NCBI GenBank assembly: GCA_049516875.1
Contig: JBEKSS010000001.1
Coordinates: 32,001-96,000, forward strand
Direction of reading: 5' to 3'
DNA: 64,000 nucleotides
DNA from: Candidatus Bathyarchaeia archaeon
Lineage (GTDB): Archaea > Thermoproteota > Bathyarchaeia > Bathyarchaeales > Bathycorpusculaceae
Shown here: piece by piece, positions 8,879 to 53,404 of the stretch
Position numbering within the stretch: the first letter of the stretch is position 1
Layout: every line of letters begins with the position of its first letter
Notes under the pieces: generated by a model
The model's input: only the letters and a program-made list of their open reading frames with translations
Database searches by the model: none
Told to the model about the DNA's origin: nothing
Position numbers and translations under genes: made by a program

Positions 8879-11800
8879 ATGGAGTTTTTGAAAAAAATCG
8901 AGGAAAAATGGCAGAAAAACTGGGAAAAAGCCAGAATCTTCGAGACTGATCCAGACCCGTCCAAGCCCAAGTGTTTCATCACCGTAGCCTATCCCTACCC
9001 CAATTCGCCTCAGCACATCGGCCACGGAAGAACCTACACCATGGCAGACGTCCACGCACGGTACATGCGAATGCGCGGCTACAACACGCTACTGCCTATG
9101 GCCTTCCACTACACGGGTACGCCCGTACTGGCAATGGCCAAACGCCTCGCAGACAATGATAAGGACCTAATCAGCGACTTCGTTAACGTGTACAAAATCC
9201 CAGAACAGAAACTAGAAGAGCTCACGGAACCCATCGCTATGGCCCGTTACTTCCACCAAGAAATCAAAACTGGCATGAAAGAAATAGGCTTCTCAATCGA
9301 CTGGAGACGTGAATTCACCACCGTAGACCCGCATTATAACCGCTTCGTAGAATGGCAATTCGAAAAACTGCGCCAAAACGGATACATCACGCAAGGAAGC
9401 CACCCAGTGGGCTGGTGCCCCAAAGACGGAAACCCAGTCGGCATGCACGACACCGCAGGCGATGTTGAACCAGAAATAGGCGAGTTCACACTCATAAAAT
9501 TCACAAAAGACAACATCGTCTATCCAGCCGCTACACTGAGACCTGAAACAATCTTCGGCGTCACAAACATCTGGCTAAACCCCAGCACAAAATACGCCAA
9601 AGCCACGATCGACGGCGAACCATGGATAATCAGCCAAGAAAGCGCCGAAAAACTCGCCAACCAAAACCGAAAAGTCAAAGTCCAAGAAACCTTTGAAGGC
9701 AGACAGCTCATAGGAAAACACGTTCAAAACCCAGCTACAGGAAGAGAAATCCCAATACTCCCAGCAGACTTCGTAGACCCTAAGAACGCCACAGGTGTCG
9801 TCATGTCAGTCCCAGGACACGCCCCATACGACTACATCGCCCTAGAAAACATAAAGAAAGAACCGCAGAAGCTGAAACAGTACGGAATAACAGCCGAAGA
9901 CATAAACACGATCCAGCCCATCTCGCTCATCGAAGTCAAAGAATACTCGGACATTCCAGCAGCAGACGTAGTAAAGAAAATGAGCATCAAAGAACAGACA
10001 GACTCGAAGCTGGAGGACGCCACGAAAGAGGTCTACAGGCACGAGTTCCACAACGGAAAAATGAAAGCCAACACAGGCAAGTACGCCGGCATGACCGTGG
10101 CTGAAGCAAAAGACAGAGTCAAACAGGACCTAATCCGGGAAGAAAAAGCCACAACCATGTACGAACTGCTTAACAGACCCGTCTTCTGCCGCTGCAAAAC
10201 AGAGTGCATCGTCAAGATAGTCCAAGACCAATGGTTCATCGACTACGGCAAACCCGAGTGGAAGGCCTTAGCACACAAGAACTTGGACATGATGGAAATA
10301 CTGCCCGAAGAAGTACGACTAGAATTCAACAACGTCATCGACTGGCTGCACGAAAGAGCCTGCGCGAGAAAATCAGGCATGGGCACACGCCTACCATGGG
10401 ACAAAGACTGGATCATCGAATCACTCTCAGACTCAACAATCTACATGGCCTACTACACAATAGTCAAACACATAAAACAGCACAAGATCCAGCCAGCCCA
10501 ATTGACCGACGAAACCCTCGACTACATATTTTTAGGCCTTGGAAAACCCGCAGAAATCAGCAGAAAAACGGGCGTAAACACCAAAGTCCTGAATCAGATG
10601 CACGACGAATTCATGTACTTCTATCCGCTGGACAGCAGGCACTCAGGCCGCGAACTCATCCCCAACCACTTCACCTTCATGATATTCAACCACACCGCCA
10701 TATTCCCACAAAACCATTGGCCCCGCCAAATCGTCACCAACGGACACGTCATGATGGAAGGCTCTAAGATGAGCAAATCCTTCGGAAACATCATCCCCCT
10801 ACGCGAAGCCATAACGAAGTTCGGCGCAGACCCAGTAAGACTGAGCGTCTTGTCAACGGCTGAACTGCTTCAAGACTCCGACTTCAGCCCCACAATAGCC
10901 AAATCAATGCGCGACAGACTCGAAAGACTCTACAGATTCGCCTCCGAAACCGCCAAGCCCCCAAGCAAAAAAGCCTCAAAGACGACGTTGACGGCGATGG
11001 ACAGGTGGATGCTCAGCAGACTACACCAGCACATCAGAAACGCAACCGAAGCGATGGACAAACTGGCCGTCCGCAAAGCCATACACACCGTACTCTTCGA
11101 ACTGGATCAAGACTTCCAATGGTACCAAAAACGCATCGCAGATGGAAAGGAAAACCCGAAAAGGAAAGCCGCATCAGCCTACGTTTTTCATGAGGTCTTA
11201 GACGCGCAAACACGGATGCTGGCACCAGTTGCACCGCACACATGCGAAGAAATATGGGAAATGCTAGGCGGAAAAGACTTCATTGCGCGAAGCCCTTGGC
11301 CAACACCCGACGAATCCAAAATAGACGTCAAGGCAGAGGAAAATGAAACCCTCATCGTGAACGTGCTCGAAGATACGCTGAATATCCTTAAAGCGACAGG
11401 CGCAAAACCCGAGAGGATATGCTATTACACGGCTGCCCCATGGAAATGGAAGACGTATATGAAAGCGCTGGAAAAATCCACTTCAGAAAAGATTCTGCAG
11501 AAGGATTTGATGAAACAGCTCATGCAAGAGCCGGAATTGAGGACAAACGCTCACAAAGTAGCCAAGTTCGCAGGTCAAATCGCAGAGGAAATAAACCGAA
11601 CTTCCGAAGAAACAAAACAAAGACGCATACAAACCGGACTTGTAAACGAGACCGAGGCATTAGAAGAAGCACAGAACTTCTTCAAGAAAGAGCTGAACGC
11701 GGAAATCCACGTCTACAACGAAGAAGACGCTGAACGCCACGACCCCAAACAAAGGGCACAACTCGCCAAACCCTACCGCCCAGCCATTTACATAGAATAA
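8879..11800 (+). CDS. leuS: Leucyl-tRNA synthetase (archaeal type)
   Basis: PYPNSPQHIGH, TLRPET, KMSKS; 973 aa. Confidence 0.97.
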   Translation: MEFLKKIEEKWQKNWEKARIFETDPDPSKPKCFITVAYPYPNSPQHIGHGRTYTMADVHARYMRMRGYNTLLPMAFHYTGTPVLAMAKRLADNDKDLISDFVNVYKIPEQKLEELTEPIAMARYFHQEIKTGMKEIGFSIDWRREFTTVDPHYNRFVEWQFEKLRQNGYITQGSHPVGWCPKDGNPVGMHDTAGDVEPEIGEFTLIKFTKDNIVYPAATLRPETIFGVTNIWLNPSTKYAKATIDGEPWIISQESAEKLANQNRKVKVQETFEGRQLIGKHVQNPATGREIPILPADFVDPKNATGVVMSVPGHAPYDYIALENIKKEPQKLKQYGITAEDINTIQPISLIEVKEYSDIPAADVVKKMSIKEQTDSKLEDATKEVYRHEFHNGKMKANTGKYAGMTVAEAKDRVKQDLIREEKATTMYELLNRPVFCRCKTECIVKIVQDQWFIDYGKPEWKALAHKNLDMMEILPEEVRLEFNNVIDWLHERACARKSGMGTRLPWDKDWIIESLSDSTIYMAYYTIVKHIKQHKIQPAQLTDETLDYIFLGLGKPAEISRKTGVNTKVLNQMHDEFMYFYPLDSRHSGRELIPNHFTFMIFNHTAIFPQNHWPRQIVTNGHVMMEGSKMSKSFGNIIPLREAITKFGADPVRLSVLSTAELLQDSDFSPTIAKSMRDRLERLYRFASETAKPPSKKASKTTLTAMDRWMLSRLHQHIRNATEAMDKLAVRKAIHTVLFELDQDFQWYQKRIADGKENPKRKAASAYVFHEVLDAQTRMLAPVAPHTCEEIWEMLGGKDFIARSPWPTPDESKIDVKAEENETLIVNVLEDTLNILKATGAKPERICYYTAAPWKWKTYMKALEKSTSEKILQKDLMKQLMQEPELRTNAHKVAKFAGQIAEEINRTSEETKQRRIQTGLVNETEALEEAQNFFKKELNAEIHVYNEEDAERHDPKQRAQLAKPYRPAIYIE

Positions 11801-11841
11801 AATATATCAACCAAATACCCTTCCTTCTATTGCCCGAAAAA

Positions 11842-11955
11842 GGATCCGTAGCGCAGCATGGATACTCCTTAAGCCATAAAGCGCGTCGGCCTTCTAACGC
11901 GCTAAAAGCCGAAGAAAGCCGAAAGTCCTGGGTTCAAATCCCAGCGGATCCGCCA
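11842..11955 (+). tRNA. tRNA-Arg(UCU) with two introns (D-loop 11864-11879; canonical 37/38 11897-11916), CCA encoded
   Basis: Acceptor GGATCCG/CGGATCC, anticodon stem TCGGC/GCCGA, T-loop TTCAAAT; both introns form bulge-helix-bulge motifs. Confidence 0.9.
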
Positions 11956-12047
11956 CACACCGAGCGAATATGTACCTTGACTACTTGTATTTCCCCCTTT
12001 TTTCCAGAAAGAAGATGAGGAATTGCAGCGTCTAGAATTTTGTTGTT

Positions 12048-12065
12048 GGGGTAAAGTTTTATCCC
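12048..12065 (+). repeat. Palindromic boundary site 1
   Basis: GGGGTAAAGTTTTATCCC. Confidence 0.9.
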
Positions 12066-12115
12066 AAACACACACACGCGCACTATGTCTGTCTCAGTCT
12101 GTCAGTCTCTCAAGT

Positions 12116-12946
12116 CTATTTTAGTCCTTTCTTTTTACTTAACTCCTGCCATATTTTCAAGCCTCTTCGAATACGTTTTTTTCTGTTCAAATCGGTAATA
12201 ACCGCGAAAGTGCCAATTCGAGGGTCAGGCGAAAGAGTAAATGTTGAGTTCGTTGTTTCAGCCTCTATCTTCATAGCTACAAAGCATTTGTGTGCAAATC
12301 TAACATGAGTCTTAGCGCTCTCCCAAATGATTTGCTTGGGGCTAAACCTTAAGTTGTGCTGATTTTTCCAAATATTAGCAAGCATATTTATGGGATAAGC
12401 TCTTGCGTCAATTTCCAGTTCGATGTCTCGTTTTTTTCTTCTTATCTTAAGCCATTGAAATCCTGATTCAAGATCCCAAGGCAACGGATTCCCAGAAACC
12501 CACTCGTTATTCATAATCTTAGCAGCTAATCGATTTTGCTGATCATAAAGCGTTGCTGAAATCTCTATTCTGTTTTTGTTGATATTCAAAGATAGCAGAT
12601 TCTCACCATCAATTGCCACTAAATCTCCAGTGCCAATTATTTGGCTAGTCCCGACATTAACAATAGGAATATTCTGATTGACTTCTAGCTGCCCTTGAAC
12701 AAACCCTTGTTTAATATTATAGGGATTCGATTTGTAGAATAGTTGTTCTTTCTTAGTCATTACTTTGTGTGTTGCTTTGTAATGACATGGAAAAGGACAA
12801 AGCAGCATGATATCCTCCGGTTTTTTGGATTTTCTTACAATATGGTGATATTGAACTATTGGTTGACCACATTTGCAACACCCAAAACCTGCTTCTTGTC
12901 TGACGATTCTCTTGACAGGAGCGGGTATCTCAGTTCTCTCGCTCAT
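12116..12946 (-). CDS. HNH endonuclease domain protein
   Basis: IPAPVKRIVRQEAGFGCCKCG...YHHI...LLCPFPCH; GGTGA SD upstream. Confidence 0.8.
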   Translation of the reverse strand: MSERTEIPAPVKRIVRQEAGFGCCKCGQPIVQYHHIVRKSKKPEDIMLLCPFPCHYKATHKVMTKKEQLFYKSNPYNIKQGFVQGQLEVNQNIPIVNVGTSQIIGTGDLVAIDGENLLSLNINKNRIEISATLYDQQNRLAAKIMNNEWVSGNPLPWDLESGFQWLKIRRKKRDIELEIDARAYPINMLANIWKNQHNLRFSPKQIIWESAKTHVRFAHKCFVAMKIEAETTNSTFTLSPDPRIGTFAVITDLNRKKRIRRGLKIWQELSKKKGLK

Positions 12947-12956
12947 TTTCAATCAC

Positions 12957-13345
12957 CTATTTTGGGAATGCGATTCTTGGAATCCACTTCCGTTTTTCAT
13001 TTCTCAAGTATTGAGCTAACAGGGAGGCCTCTTCACAAATCAACGTCTCAACTTCCTGACTTTTACCATATCTAATCCGTGGGATATCAACCCTCATCAA
13101 TAAGTATTCGTTCAGATGTCTAAGCAAATCTCTGTGTTCAGTTCACTTAAGTACTGCCTCTTTCCTTTCTTTCTCGTTGAAAGAATCTCTGTCTTCAGAA
13201 CGAAGTCAGACGGTTTGAGCTTCTTACAGTACTGGATCAGAAAGTCGTCTATCAAATAGCGGTACAATTCCATGAAGTCACATATCAGACTCGGCTTGCC
13301 CATTGCGGCAGTGTGCAGAAACCCAAGGTAGGGTTCAAGCTTGGC
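12957..13345 (-). pseudogene. cas1: Cas1-solo (casposase-like) C-terminal remnant, frameshifted near 13133
   Basis: AKLEPYLGFLH...KPSLICDFMELYR, then in shifted frame RVDIPRIRYGKSQEVETLICEEASLLAQYLRNEKRKWIPRIAFPK*. Confidence 0.85.
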
Positions 13346-13350
13346 CTTTA

Positions 13351-13701
13351 TCAATAGCGCACGCGCTCTTCCTCCTTGGTTTCCAAAAGTCGCTTGACGC
13401 TCTCTGGAACTTGTCCTTCAATCCAAATGTCTTCAATATCTTTGAACGGCACAAATACAATATCGCCAAAAGTCAAATGCGTGATTTCAGTTGGAGTATT
13501 ATCGAGAGTTCCCTTCACAAGCTGATTTTCAACTTGAACTTCGGAAACCTTGACCCACATATGTTCGACACGTTTACCAGCAGAGAATGCAGATTTCACC
13601 ATATCGGCTTTGAGTAACTGCTCCACAGTGAATTTTCCCTTGTTTGGATAGAGTTTCTCTGAACATTCAGGACAAACATAGAGAATATTGGGATCAGACA
13701 T
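13351..13701 (-). CDS. DUF2314/YegJ-like protein with N-terminal CPEC
   Basis: EHMWVKV...GTLDNTP...GDIV; GGAG SD before MSDPN. Confidence 0.65.
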   Translation of the reverse strand: MSDPNILYVCPECSEKLYPNKGKFTVEQLLKADMVKSAFSAGKRVEHMWVKVSEVQVENQLVKGTLDNTPTEITHLTFGDIVFVPFKDIEDIWIEGQVPESVKRLLETKEEERVRY

Positions 13702-13831
13702 TATTCTCCACTCCAAACGCGCGCGCCCTAAGTATCCCAATTGATTTAACTTATCGTTTATGAATCGGAAATTCAGAACCAGAATTGGGTTTGGGTTTGT
13801 GTGTGTGCGCGCGCTTGCTCTTCCCTTTATC

Positions 13832-14047
13832 TCAATCTCCTTTTCTAAGATTTCTTTTGAACATTTTCTCGATGTTATAATTATCAACCGCTTGAAGACT
13901 TTCTTTTATCAATTCAACTTCTGTCTTTCTAGGGACATAGGAAACACTACCATTAGAATTAATCCAGAAATTGGAATCTTCAACAAAATGCACAACCATC
14001 AATAGGCGACCGTCAGAAGACATACGAACTTCAATTTTCGCTGGCAT
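13832..14047 (-). CDS. Hypothetical protein
   Basis: 71 aa ATG ORF with TATA-like sequence upstream. Confidence 0.5.
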   Translation of the reverse strand: MPAKIEVRMSSDGRLLMVVHFVEDSNFWINSNGSVSYVPRKTEVELIKESLQAVDNYNIEKMFKRNLRKGD

Positions 14048-14575
14048 GCAAAAATATATTGTGGAAGTGATATTTTTGCGTTGAGTTTTTGATTAACTAC
14101 TGCATCGTTCGCTATTTTTGTATTATCCAACGTTGCATTCGCTAATTCAATAGGCTAAAACAGGTGATATTCACTTCAATAAGTTGAAAAGGTAGCATGT
14201 AACTTCAATCATTTGCTTTGGAATAGTAGATTTTAATGTTGCTAGAAATACTTGGCTCAAATTGGTCAGTTTATGTTGATTTGTTTATCTCAGAAAGGTA
14301 TAGCAAGAGTGGAAGCGTTTCTTGACTCACTACCTTGCGCGTGCTTTTATTTGAAATAACAAATTCGAGAGCCTATTAAGGTTAGAGGATTCTAACTAAG
14401 AGCGCGCGCTGCCATGTATTCATCTTTCCCGATTTTCTATGCTCTTATTCTCCAGATTTGAAGTTTTACAATTACGAAGGGTTTTGGGATTCCTTTAAGC
14501 GCGCCATAAGCCATTTTGAAATGAATGAAAGAATTTATTAATCTGTTGAAATAGAATGGTTCACTGGGAATAGCA

Positions 14576-15034
14576 TTGTCGCAATTACTTCCTCTCGAGA
14601 AATTTCTCTCAATGTTTGAGTCTGATTTGCAAAACACGGTGGCTAACATTGAATGGATGATACCAGAGCGAAAGGATATTTATGGTTTAGTAAGAAACGC
14701 ATGGAAAGAGCTTCAACCGCAATTTGAAACAGCGACAAAAGAGATACGTGAGATTGTATCTACCGATGTTAGCGCGGGCGCGCGCTTTCAAGCTATGGGA
14801 TTATCAGGTTCACAGTTAGAACTAAAGATTAAAGAATACACAAGACGTAGAGAACGACTGCTTAATTTTGATAAGCTTAAGCTATCAAGAATTGCAAGTG
14901 ACGTTTTGAAGAGATTATTAAAAGCGTTATTGACCTCTGCTGACAATATACTTGACACTTTGGCATCAATTTTCCCTCCTATGCAGGCAATCAAGGAATT
15001 CAAGGATACTCTCGTAAGTATAGCGTCAGACTAA
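14576..15034 (+). CDS. Hypothetical helical protein
   Basis: 152 aa ORF in AT-rich island. Confidence 0.6.
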   Translation: MSQLLPLEKFLSMFESDLQNTVANIEWMIPERKDIYGLVRNAWKELQPQFETATKEIREIVSTDVSAGARFQAMGLSGSQLELKIKEYTRRRERLLNFDKLKLSRIASDVLKRLLKALLTSADNILDTLASIFPPMQAIKEFKDTLVSIASD

Positions 15035-15126
15035 GTGTAGCGCGCGCCAGACTTGAGAGTTGCCGACAAATATAAGACGAACTTCAACAATATGAGAGTG
15101 ATTTCTGCCTATTTGGTGATAGCAAC

Positions 15127-15342
15127 ATGGTCAGCGATACTCTCGTAGGAAAAATAATCAAAATGTCTGGTAACAACCTTACAATAAGGGTTTTTGTTGA
15201 GTCTGGCGAAAAAACAGAATACTATGAGGTAACGCTTCCAGTCAAAGCAGAACTTCTTGACACTGCTGTGTCAAATATCGGCAGGAAGGTTAGTTTCTAC
15301 ACATGGAAGGGCTATATAGACGGTCTCGAAACAGCCTCCTAG
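15127..15342 (+). CDS. Small hypothetical protein
   Basis: GGTGA SD, 71 aa, beta-rich. Confidence 0.6.
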   Translation: MVSDTLVGKIIKMSGNNLTIRVFVESGEKTEYYEVTLPVKAELLDTAVSNIGRKVSFYTWKGYIDGLETAS

Positions 15343-15417
15343 CCACTTGCTCTGCGCGCGCAAAATAAAAAATCCAGAAACAGTGTCGTCGTCCGTCGTC
15401 GTAAATATTGTGTGTGT

Positions 15418-15435
15418 GGATAAAACTTTACCCCC
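15418..15435 (-). repeat. Palindromic boundary site 2
   Basis: GGATAAAACTTTACCCCC. Confidence 0.9.
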
Positions 15436-15552
15436 AAACCCAAACCCTGCCGAAGCAGCAAAGAAAAACAGAGACGCAGAAAAATCTGCAAAACCGCTTT
15501 AGATCTTCATCTCTTCAACCTTTAGCGAGCTAGGGGGCAAAACTGGTGATGA

Positions 15553-15699
15553 TTAAAAAGCCTTCAGAGCTTTCATTTGATTAGATAACTTGAGTTTAAT
15601 ACAGTTAGTGCAGACCGTGACAAATACCTTCTCATTAGGAAAACCCACTGCATACGGCACTATTTCTGCTCCACACTTGGGGCACTTCACTTGCGACAT
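15553..15699 (-). CDS. Zinc-ribbon microprotein (48 aa)
   Basis: Manual translation MSQVKCPKCGAEIVPYAVGFPNEKVFVTVCTNCIKLKLSNQMKALKAF; GAGGT SD. Confidence 0.6.
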   Translation of the reverse strand: MSQVKCPKCGAEIVPYAVGFPNEKVFVTVCTNCIKLKLSNQMKALKAF

Positions 15700-15931
15700 T
15701 CTTCTACCTCAGCTATCCAACTGATCAATCAAATTGAAACGGACACTTAAACGGTATTTCGATCAGCAGAATATTACCAAAAAAGCGCGCGCTCGTCCTT
15801 CTCACACACACGCCGTGTGAGTGTGTGTTGTATGGGTAGGTATAGGTAGGTGTAGAGGTAGGAGTTGGCAGTGGCAGTGACCGAGAGTTTGAGTGACTGG
15901 CAGAGCGAGTGACCGTGAAATTGGTTGGTTG

Positions 15932-15948
15932 AGGGTGAAGTTTTATCC
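15932..15948 (+). repeat. Palindromic boundary site 3 (GTGAAG variant)
   Basis: AGGGTGAAGTTTTATCC. Confidence 0.8.
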
Positions 15949-16021
15949 AATTGACCAAATTTCGGAGTTGCGGAAAAGTTATAGCTGAACCAGTTCAATC
16001 AGCTTCAGTGCGTGTTCACAA

Positions 16022-16558
16022 TTGCTTGAAGGAAAGAATATTAACATGAGGGTTATGGAGAAAGAGGACTTGCCACTATTTGCAGAATGGGTTAACAAGC
16101 CTGAGTTCATTGGTGAATACAATCCTCTGCGACAGATGTCCAGAACAGAGATAGAGAAGGGTTATGAAAAAAGCAGTCTTGAACAAATGGAGTTTATTAT
16201 TGAAAAGAAAGATGGAAATAAAATCGGTTACATATGGCATTTTGCTGCCCATCCTGTAGCAAAACTGTTGGAGATAGGTTATTTCTTAGTTCCAAGCGAG
16301 AGAGGTAAAGGCTACTGTACTGAAGCCGTCAACATTATGGTCGACTACTTGTTTCTCTCAAAAGAAATCATACGTATTCAAGCTCATACTGAACTGAGAA
16401 ATATGGCTTCTCAGAGGGTTTTAGAAAAAGTTGGATTCAAAAAGGAAGGAACAGTTCGCAAATCCTTTTTCAACAGAGGAGAATATAGAGATGCTTGTCT
16501 GTATAGCATCCTGAGAGTGGAATGGAAAGAACCAAGAATACTGACAAGGACCGCTTAA
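16022..16558 (+). CDS. GNAT N-acetyltransferase, RimJ/RimL family
   Basis: EIGY...ERGKGYCTEA...NMASQRVLEKVGFKKEG. Confidence 0.92.
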   Translation: MLEGKNINMRVMEKEDLPLFAEWVNKPEFIGEYNPLRQMSRTEIEKGYEKSSLEQMEFIIEKKDGNKIGYIWHFAAHPVAKLLEIGYFLVPSERGKGYCTEAVNIMVDYLFLSKEIIRIQAHTELRNMASQRVLEKVGFKKEGTVRKSFFNRGEYRDACLYSILRVEWKEPRILTRTA

Positions 16559-16563
16559 GAAAT

Positions 16564-16582
16564 GGGGATAAGACTTCACCCC
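16564..16582 (-). repeat. Palindromic boundary site 4 (GTGAAG variant)
   Basis: GGGGATAAGACTTCACCCC. Confidence 0.8.
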
Positions 16583-16679
16583 TACATACACCACTCTTTC
16601 TAGACCGAGGCACCAGTAAAATGCAGTCAACACATATATGACATAGCAATCAAAGACTCAAAAAGAGGAAACACCAACT

Positions 16680-17132
16680 ATGAAACAGCAAACAAGCCAG
16701 TTCTCAGAAAAAGCAGCAAACTTCTTCAGGCAAGACTACAACTGCGCTCAAAGCGTCCTGTTGACCATGCAAGAATACTATGGCATTCGCAGGAACAGGT
16801 TAATCCCAAAAATCGCCACAGCGTTTGGAGGGGGAATCGGGAGACGCGGCTCACTGTGTGAAGCGTTAACAGGCGCCATAATGGCCATTGGGTTGAGGCA
16901 TGGAACCAACAAGACAGTCTTGGCAGAAAAAGAAAAGGCATACCAGATAGCTCTAAGATTCTACGAACAATTTGTAAAAGAATGTGGTAGCCCCTTCTGC
17001 AGAGAACTCATCGGATATGATTTAACTAATCCCGAAGAACTCGAAAGACTACGAAAGTCAAACGTGCGCGAAGAAAAATGCTCCTATTTCGTGACAAAGG
17101 CTGTTGAAATACTGATTAGCTTAGAAGAGTAA
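16680..17132 (+). CDS. C_GCAxxG_C_C family putative redox protein
   Basis: YNCAQSV, FGGGIG, LCEALTG, CREL. Confidence 0.88.
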   Translation: MKQQTSQFSEKAANFFRQDYNCAQSVLLTMQEYYGIRRNRLIPKIATAFGGGIGRRGSLCEALTGAIMAIGLRHGTNKTVLAEKEKAYQIALRFYEQFVKECGSPFCRELIGYDLTNPEELERLRKSNVREEKCSYFVTKAVEILISLEE

Positions 17133-17396
17133 TAGAGCCCAGCGTGGACTTGAACATAAGGCAAGTGGCGATGTCTCCCGCAAACCCCTCTTTTTCTATG
17201 TCAATCCAGATTCCGAGTTCATCATTATATAGCGAATCCGCCGGGAATTGAACCCCGCAGGGTGAATTTGACCCGCCTCTGGGTCTTCTTCAGCATCCCT
17301 CTTTTTTCTATTTTGCGCTTGTATGCTTCTTTTGTCGTACATGAAAGCATGCTCTTGCAAGTCAATTTCCACTTCTAAAGAATGGTAACATTTTAT

Positions 17397-17582
17397 AGCG
17401 CGCATGTGTGTTCCTAAATTGGCCAAAAATGGTTTTTATTCGCCTTTTGTGATTTGGGGACAGTTTTGGACTTCGCATTTGTTCCTGAATTCCTTGCGGC
17501 AACCAGCCTTCTCGAACAAGCAGAAGTGTGCAGAACGGAATTAAAACCATTTTTAACCATTTTCGGAACAGGCATGCGCGCT
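17397..17582. mobile_element. MITE-like element flanked by GCGCGC
   Basis: AGCGCGCATGTGTGTTCCTAAATTGG versus reverse complement of right end AGCGCGCATGCCTGTTCCGAAAATGG (22/26). Confidence 0.65.
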
Positions 17583-17666
17583 GGGCTTGAGCGCCAGTTG
17601 AGTCTATAACCACAAAATTCTTTTGGTGTGAACAACCCTTTGTTTGTCTAGCTGTTGAGGTGTCGT

Positions 17667-23924: not shown

Positions 23925-24110
23925 CATGACACGAGTCTCCAGCAAACACGAACTACAAGCCACCAACCGTTTGAGCCTCAAAAAAACCACGGATTGAGTA
24001 CTCAAAAGCAGAAGGTCGAAACCCGACATGCAACCCGCACGAACAACCATCAGAATTCACCTTTTGACACTCAAAGAAATCACGGATTGAATACTCAAAA
24101 GCAAGGGCTC
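23925..24110 (-). repeat. Double-palindrome intergenic repeat, two tandem copies
   Basis: TTTGAGCCTCAAAAAAACCACGGATTGAGTACTCAAAAGCA (to 24010) and a diverged copy 24061-24110. Confidence 0.85.
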
Positions 24111-24116
24111 TGGATC

Positions 24117-25418
24117 TCAGCCTTTCAGCTTCTCGGCGACCTCTTCGATTTTGACGGTTTTCTGCTCTCTCTTCGCCAGATCTCGCACCACAACCGCTCC
24201 CTCCTTCAGCTCTCTTTCTCCCACCATCACAGCGTAGCTCATCCTTCTTCTGTCCGCGTCCTCCAAGGCTCTAGCCATCTTCCGCCCCATGACCTCAACC
24301 TCAACACACACTCCCGCTTCCCTAAGCATCTGCGAAACCCTCAAAGCCTCACCCCTCAACTCTTCTTTGATGGGAATAACCAGCACCGTCCTTTCATCCC
24401 CAGCCTTCCGCACGGCTTTCTCCGTAACCTTCTGCTCCTGCAACGCCAGCATCATCCTGTCCACTCCGTGAGCAACACCCACGGCGGGCGTTGGATCGCC
24501 CCCGAACAGCTCGATAAGCCTGTCGTACCTTCCGCCTCCGCCCAGCGCTAAATCCATGCCTGGCACGTACACCTCAAGAATCATTCCCGTGTAATACTCA
24601 AGCCCCCTCGCGAAACCCGCGTCCACCATCATGTCAACCTTGCACCCGCTCTTCAGGACAAGAGTCAGGATTTCGCCGAGGTTTCTCGCAGCCTCAACAG
24701 ACTTCTCATAACCCTTCACAAGCTCGGTTATCCTGTCAGCCACCTCGAGAACGTCGCTGCCCCTGAGCTTCACCAGCTTTCGAAGCGTCAACATACACTT
24801 TTGCGACACGCCGGCATTTTCCACCAGCTTGAAAGCGTCGTCATACTGCTTCTTGTCCATCAGCTGCATGACCGCGCTCTGCACCTTGTCCACAACCTTC
24901 TCCTGGTTCAGCATCCCCCTCAGAACACCGACGTGACCAACCTTCAACGCAAACTTGTTCAACCCCGCGGCCCGCATCAAGCTGTTCGTCAGCAAAAGGA
25001 TTTCAGCGTCCGCCTCCGGCCTGCCGGAACCCATCAGCTCGTAGTTCGTCTGCCAAAACTCTCTGTAACGGCCCCGCTGCGGCTCATCATAACGGTATAT
25101 GCTCCCAACCGAGAAAAGCCTGAACGGTCTGGGTTCGTTCCGCAACGTCGTAGCTACGAGCCTGGCCACGGAGGCCGTGAACTCTGGGCGCAGTGCGACG
25201 TCTCTTTCGCCCAGATCCTTGAACACGAACATGCGCGACTTGACCTCTTCCCCGGCTTTCGCTGACAGCAACTCGTACGACTCCACAACGGGCGTCACAA
25301 TCTCCTTGTACCCGTAAAGACACGCCACTTCCTTGGCCTTGCCTTCAACAAGTCTCAGCAGCCTGGCTTCTTCGGGCAGGAAGTCCCTCATGCCGCGGAC
25401 GGTCTTGAACTCGGCCAT
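24117..25418 (-). CDS. hisS: Histidyl-tRNA synthetase
   Basis: RGMRDFLP, LRPEFTAS, RYDEPQRGRYREF, RGLEYYTG, GGGRYD. Confidence 0.97.
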   Translation of the reverse strand: MAEFKTVRGMRDFLPEEARLLRLVEGKAKEVACLYGYKEIVTPVVESYELLSAKAGEEVKSRMFVFKDLGERDVALRPEFTASVARLVATTLRNEPRPFRLFSVGSIYRYDEPQRGRYREFWQTNYELMGSGRPEADAEILLLTNSLMRAAGLNKFALKVGHVGVLRGMLNQEKVVDKVQSAVMQLMDKKQYDDAFKLVENAGVSQKCMLTLRKLVKLRGSDVLEVADRITELVKGYEKSVEAARNLGEILTLVLKSGCKVDMMVDAGFARGLEYYTGMILEVYVPGMDLALGGGGRYDRLIELFGGDPTPAVGVAHGVDRMMLALQEQKVTEKAVRKAGDERTVLVIPIKEELRGEALRVSQMLREAGVCVEVEVMGRKMARALEDADRRRMSYAVMVGERELKEGAVVVRDLAKREQKTVKIEEVAEKLKG

Positions 25419-25436
25419 TCTCAGCTTTCTCCGTTG

Positions 25437-25988
25437 TCACTTCAGATTTAGTTCTGAAACGGAGTAGTAAACTATTTCTCCTCTGCGGTTCATGACCGCC
25501 AGGACGAGCTCCTTCTTGAGGCTGAGGCTCTGCGTCAGCGCGCGGCTCAGGCTTTCAACCGCAATGGGCTTTCCCTCCTGAACGCTGACTATCAGGTACT
25601 TGGCCGTGTCCTTGCTGTAGTTGCCCCTCTCGTAAACTCGAAAGTCGACGCCCTGGCCGAAGCCTTCCCGCACGACGTACCCCCTGCTTCTCAAATCGCG
25701 GAAAACCAGGTAACACGCCCAAGCGTTCTCGTTAACCGTCTCGTAACACTGGAGCAGCCGCTGGAAACCCACTCTGTCATCGTTCTCGTCCCCAACCTCC
25801 AGCATCGCCCTGTCCACAAGGTAGAGCGCCTCGTAAAACGTTAGCTGAAAAGTCTTCTTTCCCGGCACTCCGTAGCCTCTGGAGGCAAGCTCGTTGACGA
25901 ACCGTTTTTCAGAAACCTTCACGCCCTCTTTGACGAGCAGGCCCTTGGCTCTGAGCTCCGGCGCGCTTGGCTCTTCACTCTTGCTCAT
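25437..25988 (-). CDS. endA: tRNA splicing endonuclease subunit, probably structural
   Basis: YEALYL, VFRDLRSRGYVV, DFRVYERG; catalytic His not present. Confidence 0.82.
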   Translation of the reverse strand: MSKSEEPSAPELRAKGLLVKEGVKVSEKRFVNELASRGYGVPGKKTFQLTFYEALYLVDRAMLEVGDENDDRVGFQRLLQCYETVNENAWACYLVFRDLRSRGYVVREGFGQGVDFRVYERGNYSKDTAKYLIVSVQEGKPIAVESLSRALTQSLSLKKELVLAVMNRRGEIVYYSVSELNLK

Positions 25989-26017
25989 CTGGACCCCCCG
26001 CTAGCTTAGGAGCGTCT

Positions 26018-27043
26018 TCACTTATAGCGGTTGGCCTGAAGCCGTTTCAAATCTTTCCTGCGTAATACGCCGGTTTCGCATACGATGGCTGAGACGTACT
26101 TGAACGGGGTTACGTCGAATGCCGGGTTCAGGACGTCGACTCCTTCGGGGGCGATGCGTTGCTGGCCTATATGCGTGACTTCTTCGGGCTTGCGTTCCTC
26201 GATGACAACCTGTGCGGACGTGTGGGCCATGTCGAACGTGGATTTGGGTGCTGCGACGTAGAAGGGAATCCTGTGTTGTTTGGCTAAGACAGCGACGGTG
26301 AAGGTGCCGATCTTGTTGATGACGGCGTCTCGGACTATGCGGTCTGCTCCCACGATGACCTTGTTCACCATGCGCTTGCTCATCACGTAGCCCACCGTGC
26401 CGTCCGTGATCAATGTTACCGGTATGCCTGCTCGCTTGAGCTCGTAAGCGGTCAGCCTTGCGCCCTGCAGGAGTGGGCGAGTCTCATCCGCGAAAACCCT
26501 GAACCTTTTCCCCTGTTCCCAAGCGGTCTTCAGGACACCTAGGGCCGTGCCAAAGTCCACAGTGGCCAGTGCGCCGGCGTTGCAGTGCGTCAACACAGCA
26601 TCTCCGTCAAGGATGAGCTTGGCGCCGTGCTTGCCAATCAGGCGGTTTGAAGCCGCGTCCTCCTCGGCAATCCTGTTTGCTTCCTCAACGACGGAGGCGG
26701 CCACATCGTCGGCACTGCCTAACGCGGTCTTGGCTTTGTCAAGGATTCTGTCCAGAGCCCAGAAGAGGTTGACGGCCGTGGGCCGTGTTGCCCTTATGGT
26801 CGCAGCGGCCCTTTCGAGTTCGCTGACCAGTTCTTTCTTGGTCTTCGCTTCTGAGTTGTGTGCTGTCAGGGCTAGGGCGTAGGCGGCGGCTGCTCCGAGG
26901 AGGGGTGCGCCTCTTATCTTCATCGTTTTTATGGCGCCGGCCACGTCTTCGCAGTTTTTCAGGCTGAGCATGACCTCTTCGTTTGGAAGTTTCGTCTGGT
27001 CAATCGTCAGCACCGTGCCGTTGCGCCACTGTATCGTTCGCAT
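26018..27043 (-). CDS. mtnA: Methylthioribose-1-phosphate isomerase (eIF-2B family)
   Basis: IDQTKLP, IRGAP, TRPTAVNL, THCNAGALAT, ETRPLLQGARLT, NPAFDVTP. Confidence 0.9.
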   Translation of the reverse strand: MRTIQWRNGTVLTIDQTKLPNEEVMLSLKNCEDVAGAIKTMKIRGAPLLGAAAAYALALTAHNSEAKTKKELVSELERAAATIRATRPTAVNLFWALDRILDKAKTALGSADDVAASVVEEANRIAEEDAASNRLIGKHGAKLILDGDAVLTHCNAGALATVDFGTALGVLKTAWEQGKRFRVFADETRPLLQGARLTAYELKRAGIPVTLITDGTVGYVMSKRMVNKVIVGADRIVRDAVINKIGTFTVAVLAKQHRIPFYVAAPKSTFDMAHTSAQVVIEERKPEEVTHIGQQRIAPEGVDVLNPAFDVTPFKYVSAIVCETGVLRRKDLKRLQANRYK

Positions 27044-27082
27044 GGCTTTTGCCTCGTAAACCGCTTATGCTTCGGGTGTATA

Positions 27083-27796
27083 ATGTTTGTCGGCCAGGTG
27101 AAAAAGGTTATGAAAACGGTGAGCCTCAGAACGTTTGTTGAAGCCTTTGGGCAGAGGTATTCTGAGGTTTTGGGCATAGAGGTTTCAGGCGGTGGTGATG
27201 GGGAGGTTTTCAAGTGGTTTTTGGCTTCGTTGCTGTTCGGCGCCCCCATCACGGAGTCAGCGGCCATCAGGACTTACCGCTGTTTCGAGAAGCGCGGTGT
27301 TCTGGCGCCGGGGCGGATTCTCAGGACCGGGTGGGACGGTCTGGTCGAAATCTTGGACGAGGGCGGCTACACGCGTTACGACTTCAAGACGGCGGACAAG
27401 CTTCTGGAGGTTGGGGGGAACCTTGTGGAAGCGTACTCTGGGAGTCTCAGCCGTGTTCACGGTTCGGCTTCTGACTCGCGTGATTTGGAGAGGAGGTTGA
27501 AAGGCTTGGGGAAGGGGGTTGGAGACGTGACGGTGAGCATTTTTCTGAGGGAGCTGCGGAGCGTGTGGGAGAAGGCTGATCCTTTTCCGACGGGTCTCGA
27601 GGTTCTTGCTGGTGAACGGCTCGGAATCCTGAAGAATGGAGCTGAAGCCGAAGAGGCTTTGAAACGGTTGAAGGGTTTCTGGGCCAGGAACAGGGTTGCT
27701 GGAAAATCGTTCGTGCAGTTTGAAACTGCTTTGCTCAGGCTGGGCAAGGAGTGCAGAAAGGGAGAATGCAGTGTTCGCTTGGCCAAGCGTGGGTAG
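27083..27796 (+). CDS. HhH-GPD superfamily DNA-glycosylase-like protein
   Basis: FKWFLASLLFG, GGYTRYD, KGVGDVTVSIFLREL. Confidence 0.75.
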   Translation: MFVGQVKKVMKTVSLRTFVEAFGQRYSEVLGIEVSGGGDGEVFKWFLASLLFGAPITESAAIRTYRCFEKRGVLAPGRILRTGWDGLVEILDEGGYTRYDFKTADKLLEVGGNLVEAYSGSLSRVHGSASDSRDLERRLKGLGKGVGDVTVSIFLRELRSVWEKADPFPTGLEVLAGERLGILKNGAEAEEALKRLKGFWARNRVAGKSFVQFETALLRLGKECRKGECSVRLAKRG

Positions 27797-27801
27797 CGCT
27801 G

Positions 27802-27908
27802 TATGTTGGAGTTCGAGTCCTTGCTTTTGAGTACTCAATCCGTGGTTTTTTTGAGACTCAAAAGGTTGATGGCGCGTGGTTCTGTGTTTGTTGGAGGCTC
27901 GTGTCATG
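27802..27908 (+). repeat. Double-palindrome intergenic repeat, copy 3
   Basis: TTGCTTTTGAGTACTCAATCCGTGGTTTTTTTGAGACTCAAAAGGTTG. Confidence 0.85.
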
Positions 27909-28085
27909 AGCTTGGCGGGCTGAGTGAGAATTTGCGGTTTTGTCTATCAGAAGGTAACAGTTTCGTGTGGCAACACCGTAGCAACCATTTTTTCGGAAAG
28001 CGCGCGAGTATGTCGGAAAAAAGATTTAAAGGCAAAACTGATGGATAGTTCTTGTATAGATTGAGATGTCGGTTGGGGGCATGTT

Positions 28086-29634
28086 ATGGACAACAGCGAT
28101 TTCTTCCTGGGGTTTGCTGCTCATGCGCACACTAAGAGTGAGCTTGGAATCGATCAGGTGAAGGAGGAGCTGAGGAGGGCAAATAGCGCAGAGGAAGCTC
28201 AGCGGCTGGCAGAAATGGTTCTTGATAGGCTTGCAACAGACGTCTCAAAAAGCGGATGTAGGCTTGATGATGTGAAACTGTTGGTCCTGTATGTGAGTTA
28301 CAGGGGAGAACCCGAAGAGAAGGATACTGTGATGTGCGAATCGATTCTGCGGTGCATCAAAGAGAGATTTGAGAAAGGTTCTGCTGCAAACCAGGTCCGA
28401 CTAATCGGACATACGACGGGTGGCGAACTGGAGAACGAAGACCTTGTGCTGAAGGAGGTTTCAGACATCGGGTACAATGGTTTGTCTCTTTTGGCTCTGG
28501 TTACAAACTTTCCAATAGGCGTGGGGCGAACTTGGAGTCTTCGAACGGCAAAGGAAGCAGGAGAGCAAGGGATGGAGATGGCTCGTGATGCGAGCGTTGA
28601 TTTCAGCCAACAGACTACAAACAAAGAGCAGCTACAAACTGGAAAGACTCTGCTTGTATTGACGCAAGGATCGAAAGTTGACACTCCAGGTTATGAGCAT
28701 TTCCTAGCCGAGGGAATTGCCAACTTCATGGGCAGCAACCGCGACGCAAGAATAGTGAACGTAATAGGCGGGAGCAGCGGTGATGGAATGACTGGCAAGG
28801 TTATTCATCAATTCTATGGCAGTTTGAAAGGGCAATCACAGTTTAGAGTTCTTGATGGTGAAGCAGTATGTGCTTTGATTCCCAACTTGCGTGAGACCTC
28901 TATAGGTGTCGACATAGGAACAGGAACGAGAATTGGAAGGCAGCACATATTTCATTTTGACCGTGAGAAGGAACTCCACTTCAAGTACGTTAAACGCATC
29001 GGCAACTAGGATTCTTGTACAAAGTATGCCAACATGATTTATGAAAATGAAGTTCGACTATCCAAGGAAAAGGGCTTGCCAATAGTTGACAAAAAAGTCA
29101 TTATACAGGGAATTTCCGATGCCCGCGCACAAAAAAGAATTTTAGTGTTCAATCCTATTCTGTACAGATACGCTTTCGCTTTTCCTTTTGGCAACTATGT
29201 TGCTAATGTCCCTCTGCGAGTGGTAGACGAAGATCTTGAACTTATCTTTCCAGTTAGAAGCTACACTCCCGAGATGCCAGGTTACTTTCATATTAGTTGA
29301 TCATGAGAAAATTCAGAAAGGAGCTCGCCGCGTGCATGATATACTGAGAGTAGATCAGGGCTTCAACTCTTGCATGAACAGGAGACTGGTTGAGCTGATG
29401 GCTGGATGTATATCTGGGACTGAAGCTGAGATATTGAAAGAAGGGCTTTCATCAACTCAGGTTATAGGATTTCTGGCATATGGCGAGATGGCATTCACTC
29501 ATCTAATCCAAGAGCCATACTTTCACGCCGGCAGATGCTGGGGAATCACACTTCATTCCAAAACTGCAACAACCGAATCGAAGGAAAAGAAAACTGAACT
29601 TGGCATTAATGGCTGGATTAAAGGAAAAACATAG
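28086..29634 (+). pseudogene. FIST-domain sensory protein, disrupted
   Basis: IGHTTGGE, GGSSGDG, IGFLAYGE motifs split by in-frame TAG (29007-29009) and a frameshift near 29285. Confidence 0.75.
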
Positions 29635-29919
29635 CCGGCAAACTAGTTTTGCAAGACTTGCAGAGCGCGCACAAAAATTCTCTCTTCAAACACTAGATGT
29701 GCAGCAATCTTATAGAGAGGCGATCGTTGGAGATGTTGCGAAGCTAATCAAATGCAAAGAACTGAAAAGTGCGCAGTGAACTTATGGAGCGCATCACTCC
29801 TTTTCTAGGCTTTCTGAGAATTTCAAGAAGAACAGGAAAATGACAGTTTTGTTACACTTTTCTGCTATAATTCCCCATGATTTTCCACGCTCTCAATAAG
29901 AACGCGAGCGTTTGTTTGG

Positions 29920-30678
29920 CTAGGTGTGAATGCTCGGTTCGTAGGGTGCTTTGACGTATGTTATGACTTCTACTGGGCATTCGCCTGAGAGTTTGAGGGT
30001 TTTTTTCCATTCTTCTCCTACGGCTATGAGGAGGAAGACTCCTGACATTTCGGCTTTGGCTTTTTTGACGAGGCTGACGAGTGCGGCTTGGGTTTCTCCG
30101 GTTTTGATCATGTCGTCGACGACGAGTACGCTGTCGCGTTTTTTGATGGCTTCTTTTGGGATGTAGAGAGTTGAGGTGACGCCTGAGCCTTTGAGGAGGA
30201 CGTAGGTTTCTTCGAGGAAGGCTTTGACGCCGATTTCTTTGGTTTTTTTTGCGACTACGAGGTTGACTCCGAGGGTGTTTGCGACCATGGTTGCGAGGGG
30301 TACGCCGTCGACGGCGACTGAGAGGACTTTTGTGACGCGTTTTCCAGCGAAATTCGCGAGGGCGTGGTTGGCGGCTTGTTGGAGGATGTTGTAGTCGCCT
30401 ATGATTTCGGTGTTGTCGAAGTAGCCGTCTTCGTCGAATTTTATTCTGCTGCGCAGTTCGGGTTCGAGGCCGACGAGTCTTGTGAGAACTTTCCAGAGCT
30501 GTTTTGCTCTGGCGGTGTTGGGCAGGACGTGGCCTTTCGCGTATCGGCTGAGGACGGTTACGGGCAGGCCGGTTTTCGAAGCGAGTTCGCGGTAGGTTAT
30601 GTTTCGTTTGTACTTTGCGGTTCTGAGAAGTTCTATGGTCATCAACCTGAGTTTCAAATCTTCCGCATGCGTGCTCAT
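29920..30678 (-). CDS. HTH + phosphoribosyltransferase domain protein (PurR-like regulator)
   Basis: TYRELASKTGLPVTVLSRY; VLVVDDMIKTGET. Confidence 0.88.
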   Translation of the reverse strand: MSTHAEDLKLRLMTIELLRTAKYKRNITYRELASKTGLPVTVLSRYAKGHVLPNTARAKQLWKVLTRLVGLEPELRSRIKFDEDGYFDNTEIIGDYNILQQAANHALANFAGKRVTKVLSVAVDGVPLATMVANTLGVNLVVAKKTKEIGVKAFLEETYVLLKGSGVTSTLYIPKEAIKKRDSVLVVDDMIKTGETQAALVSLVKKAKAEMSGVFLLIAVGEEWKKTLKLSGECPVEVITYVKAPYEPSIHT

Positions 30679-30827
30679 AACAACAGCCTCTTATACACTG
30701 ATAAGTCAAACCTTAACGTGTTCCCCTTCTATTATTGCACTAGCGATATATACTTTGCTGGGTGTGAGAAAACGCCATGTCTGCGGGCTGCTAGGGTCTT
30801 CTGCGAACCTTTCGTTTGAGGCTGCGC

Positions 30828-46410: not shown

Positions 46411-46806
46411 TTGTCTGGTAGAAACCATTCCACATTTAACATAGCAGCGGAAATTCTGAGAGAGTTGCGGGAACCAACTGGCGTTACGAATACCATATCC
46501 AATTGTAATATGAGCTTCAAACAGTCAGGGTATTACTTGAGTTTCATGAAGTCAAGCGATATTATCCAGACAGACGTAATAACGGGAAGAGTGAAGTATT
46601 GTAGAACAGAAGCTGGACAGAAGTTTCTAGAAACCTATGACAAGATGATTCTGTTACTAGATCCTGGTTTTTTTCCCGCGCTGCCCAATGTAACAACGAG
46701 CACGCGCTGCAACACGATGGTTGGTTGGGGTAAAGTTTTATCCCCAAACCCAAAAAAAGAAGTATATACCATTTTTAGCCATTTTAGGGACAAGCCAGCG
46801 CGCTAA
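46411..46806 (+). CDS. Winged-helix regulator (HTH_45-like); tail runs through boundary site 5
   Basis: RNHSTFNIAAEIL...NCNMSFKQSGYYL...YCRTEAGQKFL. Confidence 0.7.
   Translation: MSGRNHSTFNIAAEILRELREPTGVTNTISNCNMSFKQSGYYLSFMKSSDIIQTDVITGRVKYCRTEAGQKFLETYDKMILLLDPGFFPALPNVTTSTRCNTMVGWGKVLSPNPKKEVYTIFSHFRDKPAR
46727..46745 (+). repeat. Palindromic boundary site 5
   Basis: GGGGTAAAGTTTTATCCCC (consensus). Confidence 0.92.
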
Positions 46807-46853
46807 CATAAAAAGCCTATATGAAAGTTTTCGATAACATATGATAGGTCTAC

Positions 46854-47279
46854 ATGGGTGTGGTGTTCATGGCTGAGTCCAAGATTAGACTCTATTTGAA
46901 AAGCGTCAAAACTGTGACGGGGACCGTCGAGATAGAACGCGAGTATATACCCCGACCCCGCCTTCCGCCCACGGTAAAAACAGAACCAAAACACGAGTAC
47001 ATACTTCCCGAGGACCAACAGAAAGCAACTCAAATGGTCAAGAGTATCGCTTCCAAGTATGGTTTAAAAGTTGAAGTTGTTGATGTGACGAGGGAAAATG
47101 TCTTTCGCAGAGAAATACAGAAAGAACGAGAAAAAATAAGGATTTTCCCAACTTTGATTGTGAGTTCTGAGGAGAGAATTGAAGGCAACATAACAGAGCA
47201 GCAAGTTGAAGAGCTTCTTTCTGGCACTCATTCTTCTGATACGCACCAACGTGACAAAAGAACTATGGGTTTGGGGTAA
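46854..47279 (+). CDS. Hypothetical thioredoxin-fold-like protein; stop codon inside site 6
   Basis: VEVVDVT...FPTLIV...RIEG; ends GGT TTG GGG TAA. Confidence 0.65.
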   Translation: MGVVFMAESKIRLYLKSVKTVTGTVEIEREYIPRPRLPPTVKTEPKHEYILPEDQQKATQMVKSIASKYGLKVEVVDVTRENVFRREIQKEREKIRIFPTLIVSSEERIEGNITEQQVEELLSGTHSSDTHQRDKRTMGLG

Positions 47280-47290
47280 AGTTTTGTCTC
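47273..47290 (+). repeat. Palindromic boundary site 6
   Basis: GGGGTAAAGTTTTGTCTC. Confidence 0.8.
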
Positions 47291-47350
47291 ATTTTCGCTC
47301 TGATGGCTGAACTCCTCTTGTCTCGCTGCTTTGAACTCTTGTTTTCTCAT

Positions 47351-47749: not shown

Positions 47750-47832
47750 AATCGTTTCGAACCCTCTTTCTCTTCGTATGATTTCCTATTGCACCCCTTA
47801 TGACTTGTGGAAGAATCGGGATGGTGGTGGTT

Positions 47833-47851
47833 GGGGTAAAGTTTTATCCCC
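47833..47851 (+). repeat. Palindromic boundary site 7
   Basis: GGGGTAAAGTTTTATCCCC (consensus). Confidence 0.92.
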
Positions 47852-48742: not shown

Positions 48743-48810
48743 AAGAGGTTTGATCTGGTCGTTTCGTCGTCGTCAGTCGTTTTTGTTTCATTTGATTCGT
48801 TTGGGTTTTG

Positions 48811-53385: not shown

Positions 53386-53404
53386 GCAGACCTCTAAGGA
53401 GATT

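Follow-up and report, generated by a model that had tools for sequence, protein, structure and literature searches.

We asked what kind of element lies between positions 12048 and 15435 of a 64,000-nt stretch of a Bathyarchaeia genome (assembly of 2.43 Mb in 20 contigs), where a broken Cas1 gene and an HNH-like gene stand between two inverted copies of a short palindrome, here called the core. The whole stretch is referred to as the window, and coordinates are positions within it unless a contig (C) is named. A first-pass annotation had read the flagged interval as one decayed casposon-like unit whose ~30-bp inverted repeats were its own terminal inverted repeats (TIRs). We consider it probable, instead, that 12049-13363 (~1.3 kb) is the dead end of a Cas1-dependent transposon, of a type common among Bathyarchaeia, and that 13351-15433 consists of unrelated cassettes that end at the core of another remnant. 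What survives is the 3' third of the Cas1 gene, with a frameshift and a break at residue ~209, together with an intact HNH-like cargo gene and a CA-rich tip on a 16-bp AT-rich quasi-palindrome. The two supposed TIRs of the window are two junctions of a target with an element tip and not a pair, and the locus cannot transpose by itself.

The Cas1 remnant was recognised both by a profile and by an intact homolog. The minus-strand open reading frame (ORF) 13354-13112 matched Pfam PF01867 (E=3.8e-14, model positions 209-282 of 283), and in tblastn with the intact Cas1 copy of the same genome (C9:118082-119107) as query, 13354-13133 aligned to residues 212-284 (65% identity) and 13133-12975, in another frame, to residues 285-337 (57% identity). 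The claim of about 130 codons of Cas1 C-terminus in two frames was thus borne out: the remnant comprises ~134 codons at 13363-12957 on the minus strand, with a single frameshift near 13133. It lacks the N-terminal ~210 codons and keeps the GFLH...CDFMELYRY motif in its first-frame piece. The C9 copy is the only intact Cas1 of this subfamily in the genome, which also contains at least seven fragments with 44-65% protein identity to it. Our searches also agreed with the annotation that the interval carries no CRISPR array, other cas genes, PolB or target-site duplication (TSD); family searches of the ORFs found no Cas2, Cas4 or PolB in it, and no CRISPR array was found anywhere in the assembly. 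The genome has a single Cas2, at a distance of 314 kb; its neighbour is another Cas1 piece, and both belong to an unrelated, decayed Cas1-Cas2-Cas4 module without an array (locus L006, C1:358268-360624), and the window fragment is only 28% identical to that CRISPR-type Cas1 piece. L006 contains a 140-aa Cas1 C-terminal piece, Cas2, a toxin-antitoxin-like pair and a Cas4-like nuclease; ~5 kb upstream of it are another Cas1 fragment of the stand-alone clade described below, two cores and a 766-aa PolB.

A stand-alone Cas1 clade and its probably mobile units

Does the fragment belong with CRISPR-associated Cas1 or with Cas1 proteins that stand alone? A database search gave 1985 relatives at E<=1e-5, and relatives were surveyed in 121 genomes of the order (this genome and 120 others). 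Matches were present in 53 of them, and by our own count from the table 12 of the 120 other genomes carry 19 full-length copies, with no more than three per genome. When the two frames of the window fragment were joined and placed in a Cas1 tree, the fragment fell with the stand-alone clade, next to the copies of L005 and L009, and not with CRISPR-associated Cas1, the grouping that would have spoken against a casposon-like origin. In the IQ-TREE phylogeny, the stand-alone and the CRISPR-linked Cas1 of the order formed two clades, each supported at 100/100; FastTree, run on the window fragment in its correct frames, gave the same separation. The fragment was 46-61% identical to all 17 stand-alone rows of the alignment versus 20-30% to all 10 CRISPR-type rows. 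Cas2 and Cas4 adjoined Cas1 in eight of nine CRISPR-type loci, with arrays in three; Cas2, Cas4 or an array was found in none of the 15 stand-alone loci. These comparisons support the view that the window piece derives from a stand-alone, non-CRISPR Cas1 clade.

The residues E160, H225 and D237 (intact-copy numbering), which from E. coli Cas1 we take to be the catalytic ones, were invariant in all 16 full-length members. The protein is 338-351 aa long in 15 of the 16 copies, with one ORF of 384 aa. A profile of the clade scored 135 bits on the solved structure 4n06, whose Cas1 (presumably from Archaeoglobus fulgidus) was deposited as CRISPR-associated, versus 94.6 bits on 6opm, the M. mazei casposase. 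The order also contains 44 partial loci of the clade, 37 of which reach residue 332 or beyond of 341, the 5' part being lost to varying length. This C-terminal bias is partly a detection effect, as the last 50 residues are the best conserved.

We searched for TIRs within 12 kb of 16 intact Cas1 copies in 15 loci. Half of the copies (8/16) were flanked by TIRs of 72-271 nt with 88-100% identity, which delimit compact units of 3.3-6.4 kb, and each of the eight compact units has, right outside its TIRs, a direct repeat of 13-16 nt without mismatch: GTTAAATTTTAAC(C) for two units, and GCTTAAATTTTAACC, GGTTAAATTTTAACC, GATAAAAGTTTACCCT, ATAGAATTTCTAT, ATAAAAATTAAAT and ATTAATGCGTAAT in the others. 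These direct repeats are AT-rich quasi-palindromes; three of the eight units use other AT-rich sequences. The repeat of unit L051, GATAAAAGTTTACCCT, agrees with the reverse complement of the window core at 15 of 16 positions, so the intact homologs do occur next to the motif. As a control, ends of different units were compared with each other: 41 of 56 pairs had at most 8 nt in common, and the 15 higher values came from units with the same core. The asymmetric centre of the palindrome is identical on one strand at both ends of a unit; this marks the palindrome as a target that was duplicated rather than a piece of the TIR. The simple repeats that stand beside cores in the window genome also form the start of the TIRs. 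A ninth TIR-bounded segment, 27.4 kb long, has TIRs of 200 nt and a direct core, and in it Cas1 is directly followed by a PolB. Thus the core is direct in 9/9 intact units. The ~640-aa PolB of the long segment has matches of at least 45% identity in ~50 of the 121 genomes, away from Cas1 in those compared. The comparisons support the proposal that the intact clade members reside in TIR-bounded, TSD-flanked units that are predicted to be mobile.

Cas1 is the only gene cluster common to all eight compact units, and PolB was found in none of them. The other recurrent genes are c1 (6/8), c2 (4/8, with only weak matches to archaeo-eukaryotic-primase-like proteins, 1.5e-3 and 1.9e-3), a MarR-like winged helix-turn-helix protein and DUF2116 zinc ribbons, and the cargo includes Fic, Schlafen/AlbA_2 and a ClpP-like protease. 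In L041, L042, L047a, L051 and L052, Cas1 is the penultimate gene and points to a terminus at a distance of 0.4-2 kb; in L010 and L050, Cas1 is followed by ~1 kb and then the core. The window, with its Cas1 remnant, HNH ORF, CA-rich tip and core at 12049-12064, has the layout of L010, L050, L041, L042 and L052, namely Cas1, one variable ORF and the core. The intact Cas1 of the window genome itself (in L005, 10546-10611 and 19712-19833) lies between inverted arms of 40 + 28 nt with 100% identity; the unit spans at least 9.3 kb, carries AbiV-like and AAA_25 genes, and its right arm is stopped by the contig end.

The first-pass annotation had suggested a check on whether the elements of intact homologs end in the same palindrome, and had linked the boundary site to a casposase. 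Both ideas stood in part: palindromic repeats flank the Cas1 units, but as a duplicated target outside the TIRs, and only the CA/GT-rich flanks correspond to the element tips.

The core and the make-up of the interval

The inverted repeats noted at the ends of the interval are real as an observation: the arms 12038-12064 and 15418-15444 are 27 nt long, 85% complementary and share the CA/TG tail. There are 11 copies of the core, GGGTAAAGTTTTATCC, in the window (0.42 expected; none of 100 shuffles reached 11) and, at up to two mismatches, 58 in the 2.43-Mb genome, 23 of them perfect. The core is therefore repeated far beyond chance, yet it is not specific to the flagged interval. The copies are bunched in a few variable islands, nearly all of them are intergenic, and nearly every one stands between a GT-rich simple repeat (often GGTTTGGGTTTGG) and a CA- or CT-rich one (CCAAACCCAAAC, CACACAC or TTCTCTC). 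A promoter motif was ruled out: an ORF start lies within 100 nt in the forward direction at 13 of the 58 cores and in the reverse direction at 13, with no fixed spacing. An integron-like cassette array was also ruled out, as no recombinase family was found among 34 + 28 island ORFs, core orientation is mixed and genes face either way.

The features of the interval and its left flank are collected in Table 1. On the minus strand the order from 5' to 3' is the DUF2314-like gene (13701-13351), the Cas1 fragment (13363-12957) and the 278-aa ORF (12952-12116). The segment similar to C15:29923-30004 adjoins another core copy there, while in the window its boundary, GGGTTTGGGTTTGTGTGTGTGCGCGCGC at 13787-13815, is without a core. 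Nothing in 13832-15342 is related to the Cas1 units; one of its 71-aa ORFs has a paralogue with 42% identity on C14. The interval is a mosaic, as its internal junctions (13354 and 13787-13815) show, and so only 12049-13363 is counted as remnant of a Cas1 element. The inner flanks of the two window cores, GTCTGTC-type at copy 1 and ACGACG-type at copy 2, have only a CA run in common, and neither recurs elsewhere in the genome or in the loci retrieved. As the cores are inverted and their inner flanks unrelated, the two copies are not the ends of one element; core copy 2 is the tip of a different element or remnant.

Table 1. Features of the flagged interval and its left flank
Position	Strand	Feature	Basis or reading
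11842..11955	+	tRNA-Arg(TCT) gene with two inserts	ARAGORN call after insert removal
12038..12083, core 12049-12064	+	Core copy 1 with GT-rich outer and CA-rich inner flank	Read as integration target beside the tip of a Cas1 element
12116..12952	-	Intact 278-aa ORF with HNH-like N-terminus, probably element cargo	PHROG matches
12957..13133	-	Cas1 pseudogene, second frame	Residues ~285-341 including stop codon; 57% identity
13133..13363	-	Cas1 pseudogene, first frame	Residues ~209-284; PF01867; 65% identity to C9 Cas1
13351..13701	-	DUF2314-like gene, abuts and cuts the Cas1 fragment	PF10077 1.3e-10; unrelated cassette
13715..13815	-	Upstream segment and core-less boundary	82 bp (13715-13796) 97.6% identical to C15:29923-30004
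13832..15342		ORFs of 71 aa (-), 152 aa (+) and 71 aa (+), plus 0.5 kb non-coding	No family matches
15407..15447, core 15418-15433	-	Core copy 2, opposite orientation to copy 1	Inner flank of ACGACG type

An HNH gene had been noted directly after Cas1. An intact ORF is indeed in that place, and its HNH identity is likely but not proven from the matches obtained: the 278-aa product matched phrog_6544 (7.1e-26), its residues 2-71 matched two PHROGs labelled 'HNH endonuclease' (8.7e-5 and 7.3e-4), and a CxxC...HH...CxxxCH pattern was seen by eye, but there were no matches in Pfam, NCBIfam or PDB sequences. The ORF is single-copy in this genome and is present in 2 of the 121 genomes of the order, so HNH is sporadic cargo, in this case probably cargo of the Cas1 element.

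Do strains differ in what lies between the cores? Logan contigs were used, which show presence and not absence; accordingly, uncovered parts in runs X8 and X9 carry no weight. Run X2 covers the whole 5.2 kb at a depth of ~320. In run X7, a relative at a depth of ~1470-1590 covers 11705-12067 (9 differences in 363 nt) and 15433-16900, whereas 12222-15353 is covered only at a depth of 1.5-12, except in a single bin matched by other Cas1 copies. The abundant X7 relative thus shares both outer flanks but not 12222-15353, and it diverges after 12067. Loose contig ends were found at the core edges (12045/12048, 12069/12074, 15417/15418, 15433/15447 and 15960-15992). From these ends and X7, we conclude that strains differ in content between cores. 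Read joints such as 12066>15433 and 15444>15967 were not used, as their sides are 20-48 nt at 90% likeness and may stem from paralogous core copies.

The interval lies in a low-GC stretch (35-44% versus ~48-52% around it), and the first core is 93 bp from the tRNA-Arg gene. ARAGORN and Rfam both missed the raw tRNA gene at 11842-11955, and no tRNA was called across the 64-kb window; the gene contains a 16-nt insert in the D-loop region and a 20-nt insert at the canonical site, and with both deleted in a script ARAGORN reports tRNA-Arg(tct). Likeness to relatives stops at 11955-11956. In five relatives, the LeuRS-tRNA pair is followed by a block that in the window is inverted at 24.1-30.8 kb, and window 11.96-24.1 kb, which includes ordinary metabolic genes, is absent from them. 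Insertion of an element at the tRNA was rejected on these grounds; the tRNA end is therefore a rearrangement breakpoint, as judged from the gene order of the five relatives, rather than a demonstrated attachment site. The inverted block (24100-30800), which adjoins LeuRS-tRNA in the relatives, encodes HisRS, a tRNA-intron endonuclease and IF-2B.

Several other features of the genome were observed. A GNAT acetyltransferase gene lies alone between two inverted cores at 15933-16581 (650 bp), and paralogues at C4:14670, C4:170431, C15:34265 and other places are also beside cores; the gene with its cores may be a non-autonomous cassette. A second island at 46728-53421 contains seven cores, the first four in the same orientation at a spacing of 0.5-1 kb, which separate mostly small ORFs without a family. 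A repeat of ~188 bp at 17396-17583, similar to a miniature inverted-repeat transposable element and with inverted ends of ~45 nt, has more than 25 copies on at least 10 contigs and is also present in the relatives' loci L005 and L009. The hexamer GCGCGC occurs at 965 sites in the genome versus 444 expected (in the window, for example, at 13719, 13807, 14402, 14778, 15040 and 15354); 76% of the sites are outside crude gene calls, which themselves cover 76% of the genome, and the hexamer is often between a TATA-like box and a start codon.

Mechanism and competing explanations

How could a Cas1 element give rise to such islands? In the mechanism that we propose, Cas1 would make staggered cuts ~13 bp apart across the palindrome and join the element ends to them, and gap repair would then duplicate the palindrome. 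Each insertion would leave two fresh targets, so that cores would accumulate in variable islands, each core between a GT-rich and a CA-rich tip. Several observations weigh against a Cas1 transposon as the source of the window remnant. The case rests on homologues, for the window itself has neither a TIR pair nor a TSD and its two cores are inverted; the sole intact Cas1 unit of this genome runs into a contig end; and within 12 kb no flanking TIR was found for 7 of the 16 Cas1 copies, including the closest relative, L009. Core pairs within 15 kb of each other in this genome gave no long TIR either, the best inverted matches being ~18-22 nt of simple repeat. For unit L052, no empty site was recovered among 25 genomes of its genus: the left flank is conserved in 10, and the right flank and a bare core were not found. 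A hand count of cores less than 5 kb apart gave 18 pairs in the same and 13 in opposite orientation, which is only weakly as serial duplication predicts. Moreover, 23 of the 58 cores are perfect although the surrounding DNA has diverged; this suggests that the core is under selection, perhaps because it is itself a host site. Finally, the activity of the clade's Cas1 as a DNA integrase is a prediction.

If the interval 12048-15435 were one decayed casposon-like element with the ~30-bp repeats as its TIRs, the 85% complementarity of the 27-nt arms, their common CA/TG run on the inner side, and the presence of both the Cas1 remnant and the HNH gene inside would be readily explained, as would the absence of the whole interior from the abundant X7 relative that keeps both flanks. 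We nevertheless consider this very unlikely. The motif has 58 genome copies, the core is direct and not inverted in all nine intact units, and the TIRs of intact units are 72-271 nt long; beyond the CA run the inner flanks of the window cores are unrelated and have no other copy, and there are foreign junctions inside the interval at 13354 and 13787-13815. The two repeats as TIRs of a single element therefore did not hold up. The perfection of 23 cores and their intergenic position would also fit a palindrome that is a host signal, such as a regulator site or a terminator, with no tie to transposition, the Cas1 pieces then being wreckage of CRISPR adaptation; the decayed module at C1:358268-360624 and the higher score of the clade profile on 4n06 than on 6opm can be cited for it. 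However, the core varies in its distance from start codons and in its orientation to them, the window fragment is far from the genome's CRISPR-type Cas1 piece (28% identity), palindromic direct repeats of 13-16 nt flank all eight TIR-bounded Cas1 units, and the use of other AT-rich sequences by three units is unexpected for a fixed host signal. We regard this explanation as highly unlikely.

It is also conceivable that the units are moved by some other, unrecognised transposase, for example the c1, c2 or c3 proteins, and that Cas1 is a passenger or has another role. The functions of c1 and c2, which are carried by six and four of the eight units, are unassigned, and c2 is weakly primase-like. 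Yet only Cas1 is present in all eight, and its predicted catalytic residues are invariant. A duplication of 13-16 bp is unusually long for DDE transposons. It is close to the 14-15 bp of the characterised casposases, as given in the available text of PMC6977970 and PMC9939771. We therefore think another transposase unlikely and favour the Cas1-dependent transposon.

Kinship with casposons and with CRISPR adaptation

Is the family a casposon family? According to the available text of PMC9939771, a PolB gene is conserved in all identified casposons, casposases make TSDs of ~15 bp, and tandem casposons share a TSD; the available text of PMC6977970 reports 14-bp TSDs for the M. mazei casposase and an essential C-terminal helix-turn-helix (HTH) domain. 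As far as these accounts go, casposon families 1-4 resemble the present family in having a Cas1-family integrase without CRISPR, TIRs, insertion at a specific short site and, often, an HNH gene aboard, as well as tandem arrays that share the duplicated site (14-15 bp there versus 13-16 bp here). They differ in conserving PolB, which is absent from all eight compact units of only 3.3-6.4 kb, and in their targets, which in those accounts are tRNA 3' ends or ef-2 and here are a dispersed AT-rich palindrome. The solved family-2 casposase has 431 aa versus 338-351 aa in 15 of our 16 copies, which leaves no room for the HTH domain. Thus the casposon-like identity proposed at the outset was upheld for a Cas1 without Cas2 or an array (0/15 loci) and for the TIRs and 13-16-nt TSDs of its relatives, but not for PolB, and the label of a casposon in the strict sense (Cas1 + PolB) does not fit.

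A closer counterpart is the 'family 5 casposases' described from hot-spring metagenomes (Front Microbiol 2022, PMC9755687), which in the available text are stand-alone archaeal Cas1 proteins near subtype I-A that keep the catalytic residues and have no C-terminal HTH; PolB is absent from all but one contig and TIRs are given for five contigs. The gene content, as far as it is described there, agrees with ours in mostly lacking PolB and in having TIRs. By eye, Cas1_938, _1200, _1219 and _1269 from the supplement of that paper have long strings in common with the 16-member consensus, SLVCDF..ELYRYLIDD and LINEEA.LLAKYLRNE. The main text contains 'TSD' 0 times, and 'duplication' and 'target site' occur in it only in a reference. 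Unlike the hot-spring family 5, the present family is from mesophilic peat and wetland Bathyarchaeia and has 13-16-bp TSDs, a palindromic target and many remnants. A full-text literature search for casposon and Bathyarchaeota found a single paper, in which both terms are passing mentions, and the literature searched gave no earlier report of the TSD, of the palindromic target or of the many remnants in Bathyarchaeia. We regard the family as a variant of the casposon kind without a polymerase, probably the one already proposed as family 5.

There is also a likeness to CRISPR spacer acquisition, in which, according to the available text of PMC9939771, Cas1 inserts at a partly palindromic repeat and duplicates it, recreating the target. 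Here, in contrast, there is no Cas2, leader or short-spacer array, the inserts are gene-sized and have their own TIRs, and the duplicated site has 13-16 bp versus the 25-50 bp stated for CRISPR repeats in the available text of PMC6977970. No CRISPR adaptation module (Cas2/Cas4 and an array) was found in the interval or beside any member of the clade. We tentatively propose, as a possibility that we ourselves doubt, that a Cas1 nearer to the solved CRISPR-associated 4n06 than to the casposase acts alone as the transposase of small polymerase-less elements, that it recreates its target so that serial insertions build repeat arrays, and that these elements, still turning over among peat strains, give a live view of the step that has been proposed between casposons and CRISPR arrays. 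Candidates for arrays built by serial insertion are the four same-orientation cores at 46728-48812 of the window and the eight in locus L009.

The family offers a direct biochemical test, as its target is a defined palindrome and its tips are simple CA-rich sequences. For annotation, it accounts for a dispersed 16-bp motif and for dozens of Cas1 C-terminal pseudogenes in Bathyarchaeia that might else be taken for CRISPR systems in decay. Should Cas1 by itself be enough to move these small elements, PolB would not be required for Cas1-driven transposition, and the family would be a closer bridge between casposons and CRISPR adaptation than families 1-4.

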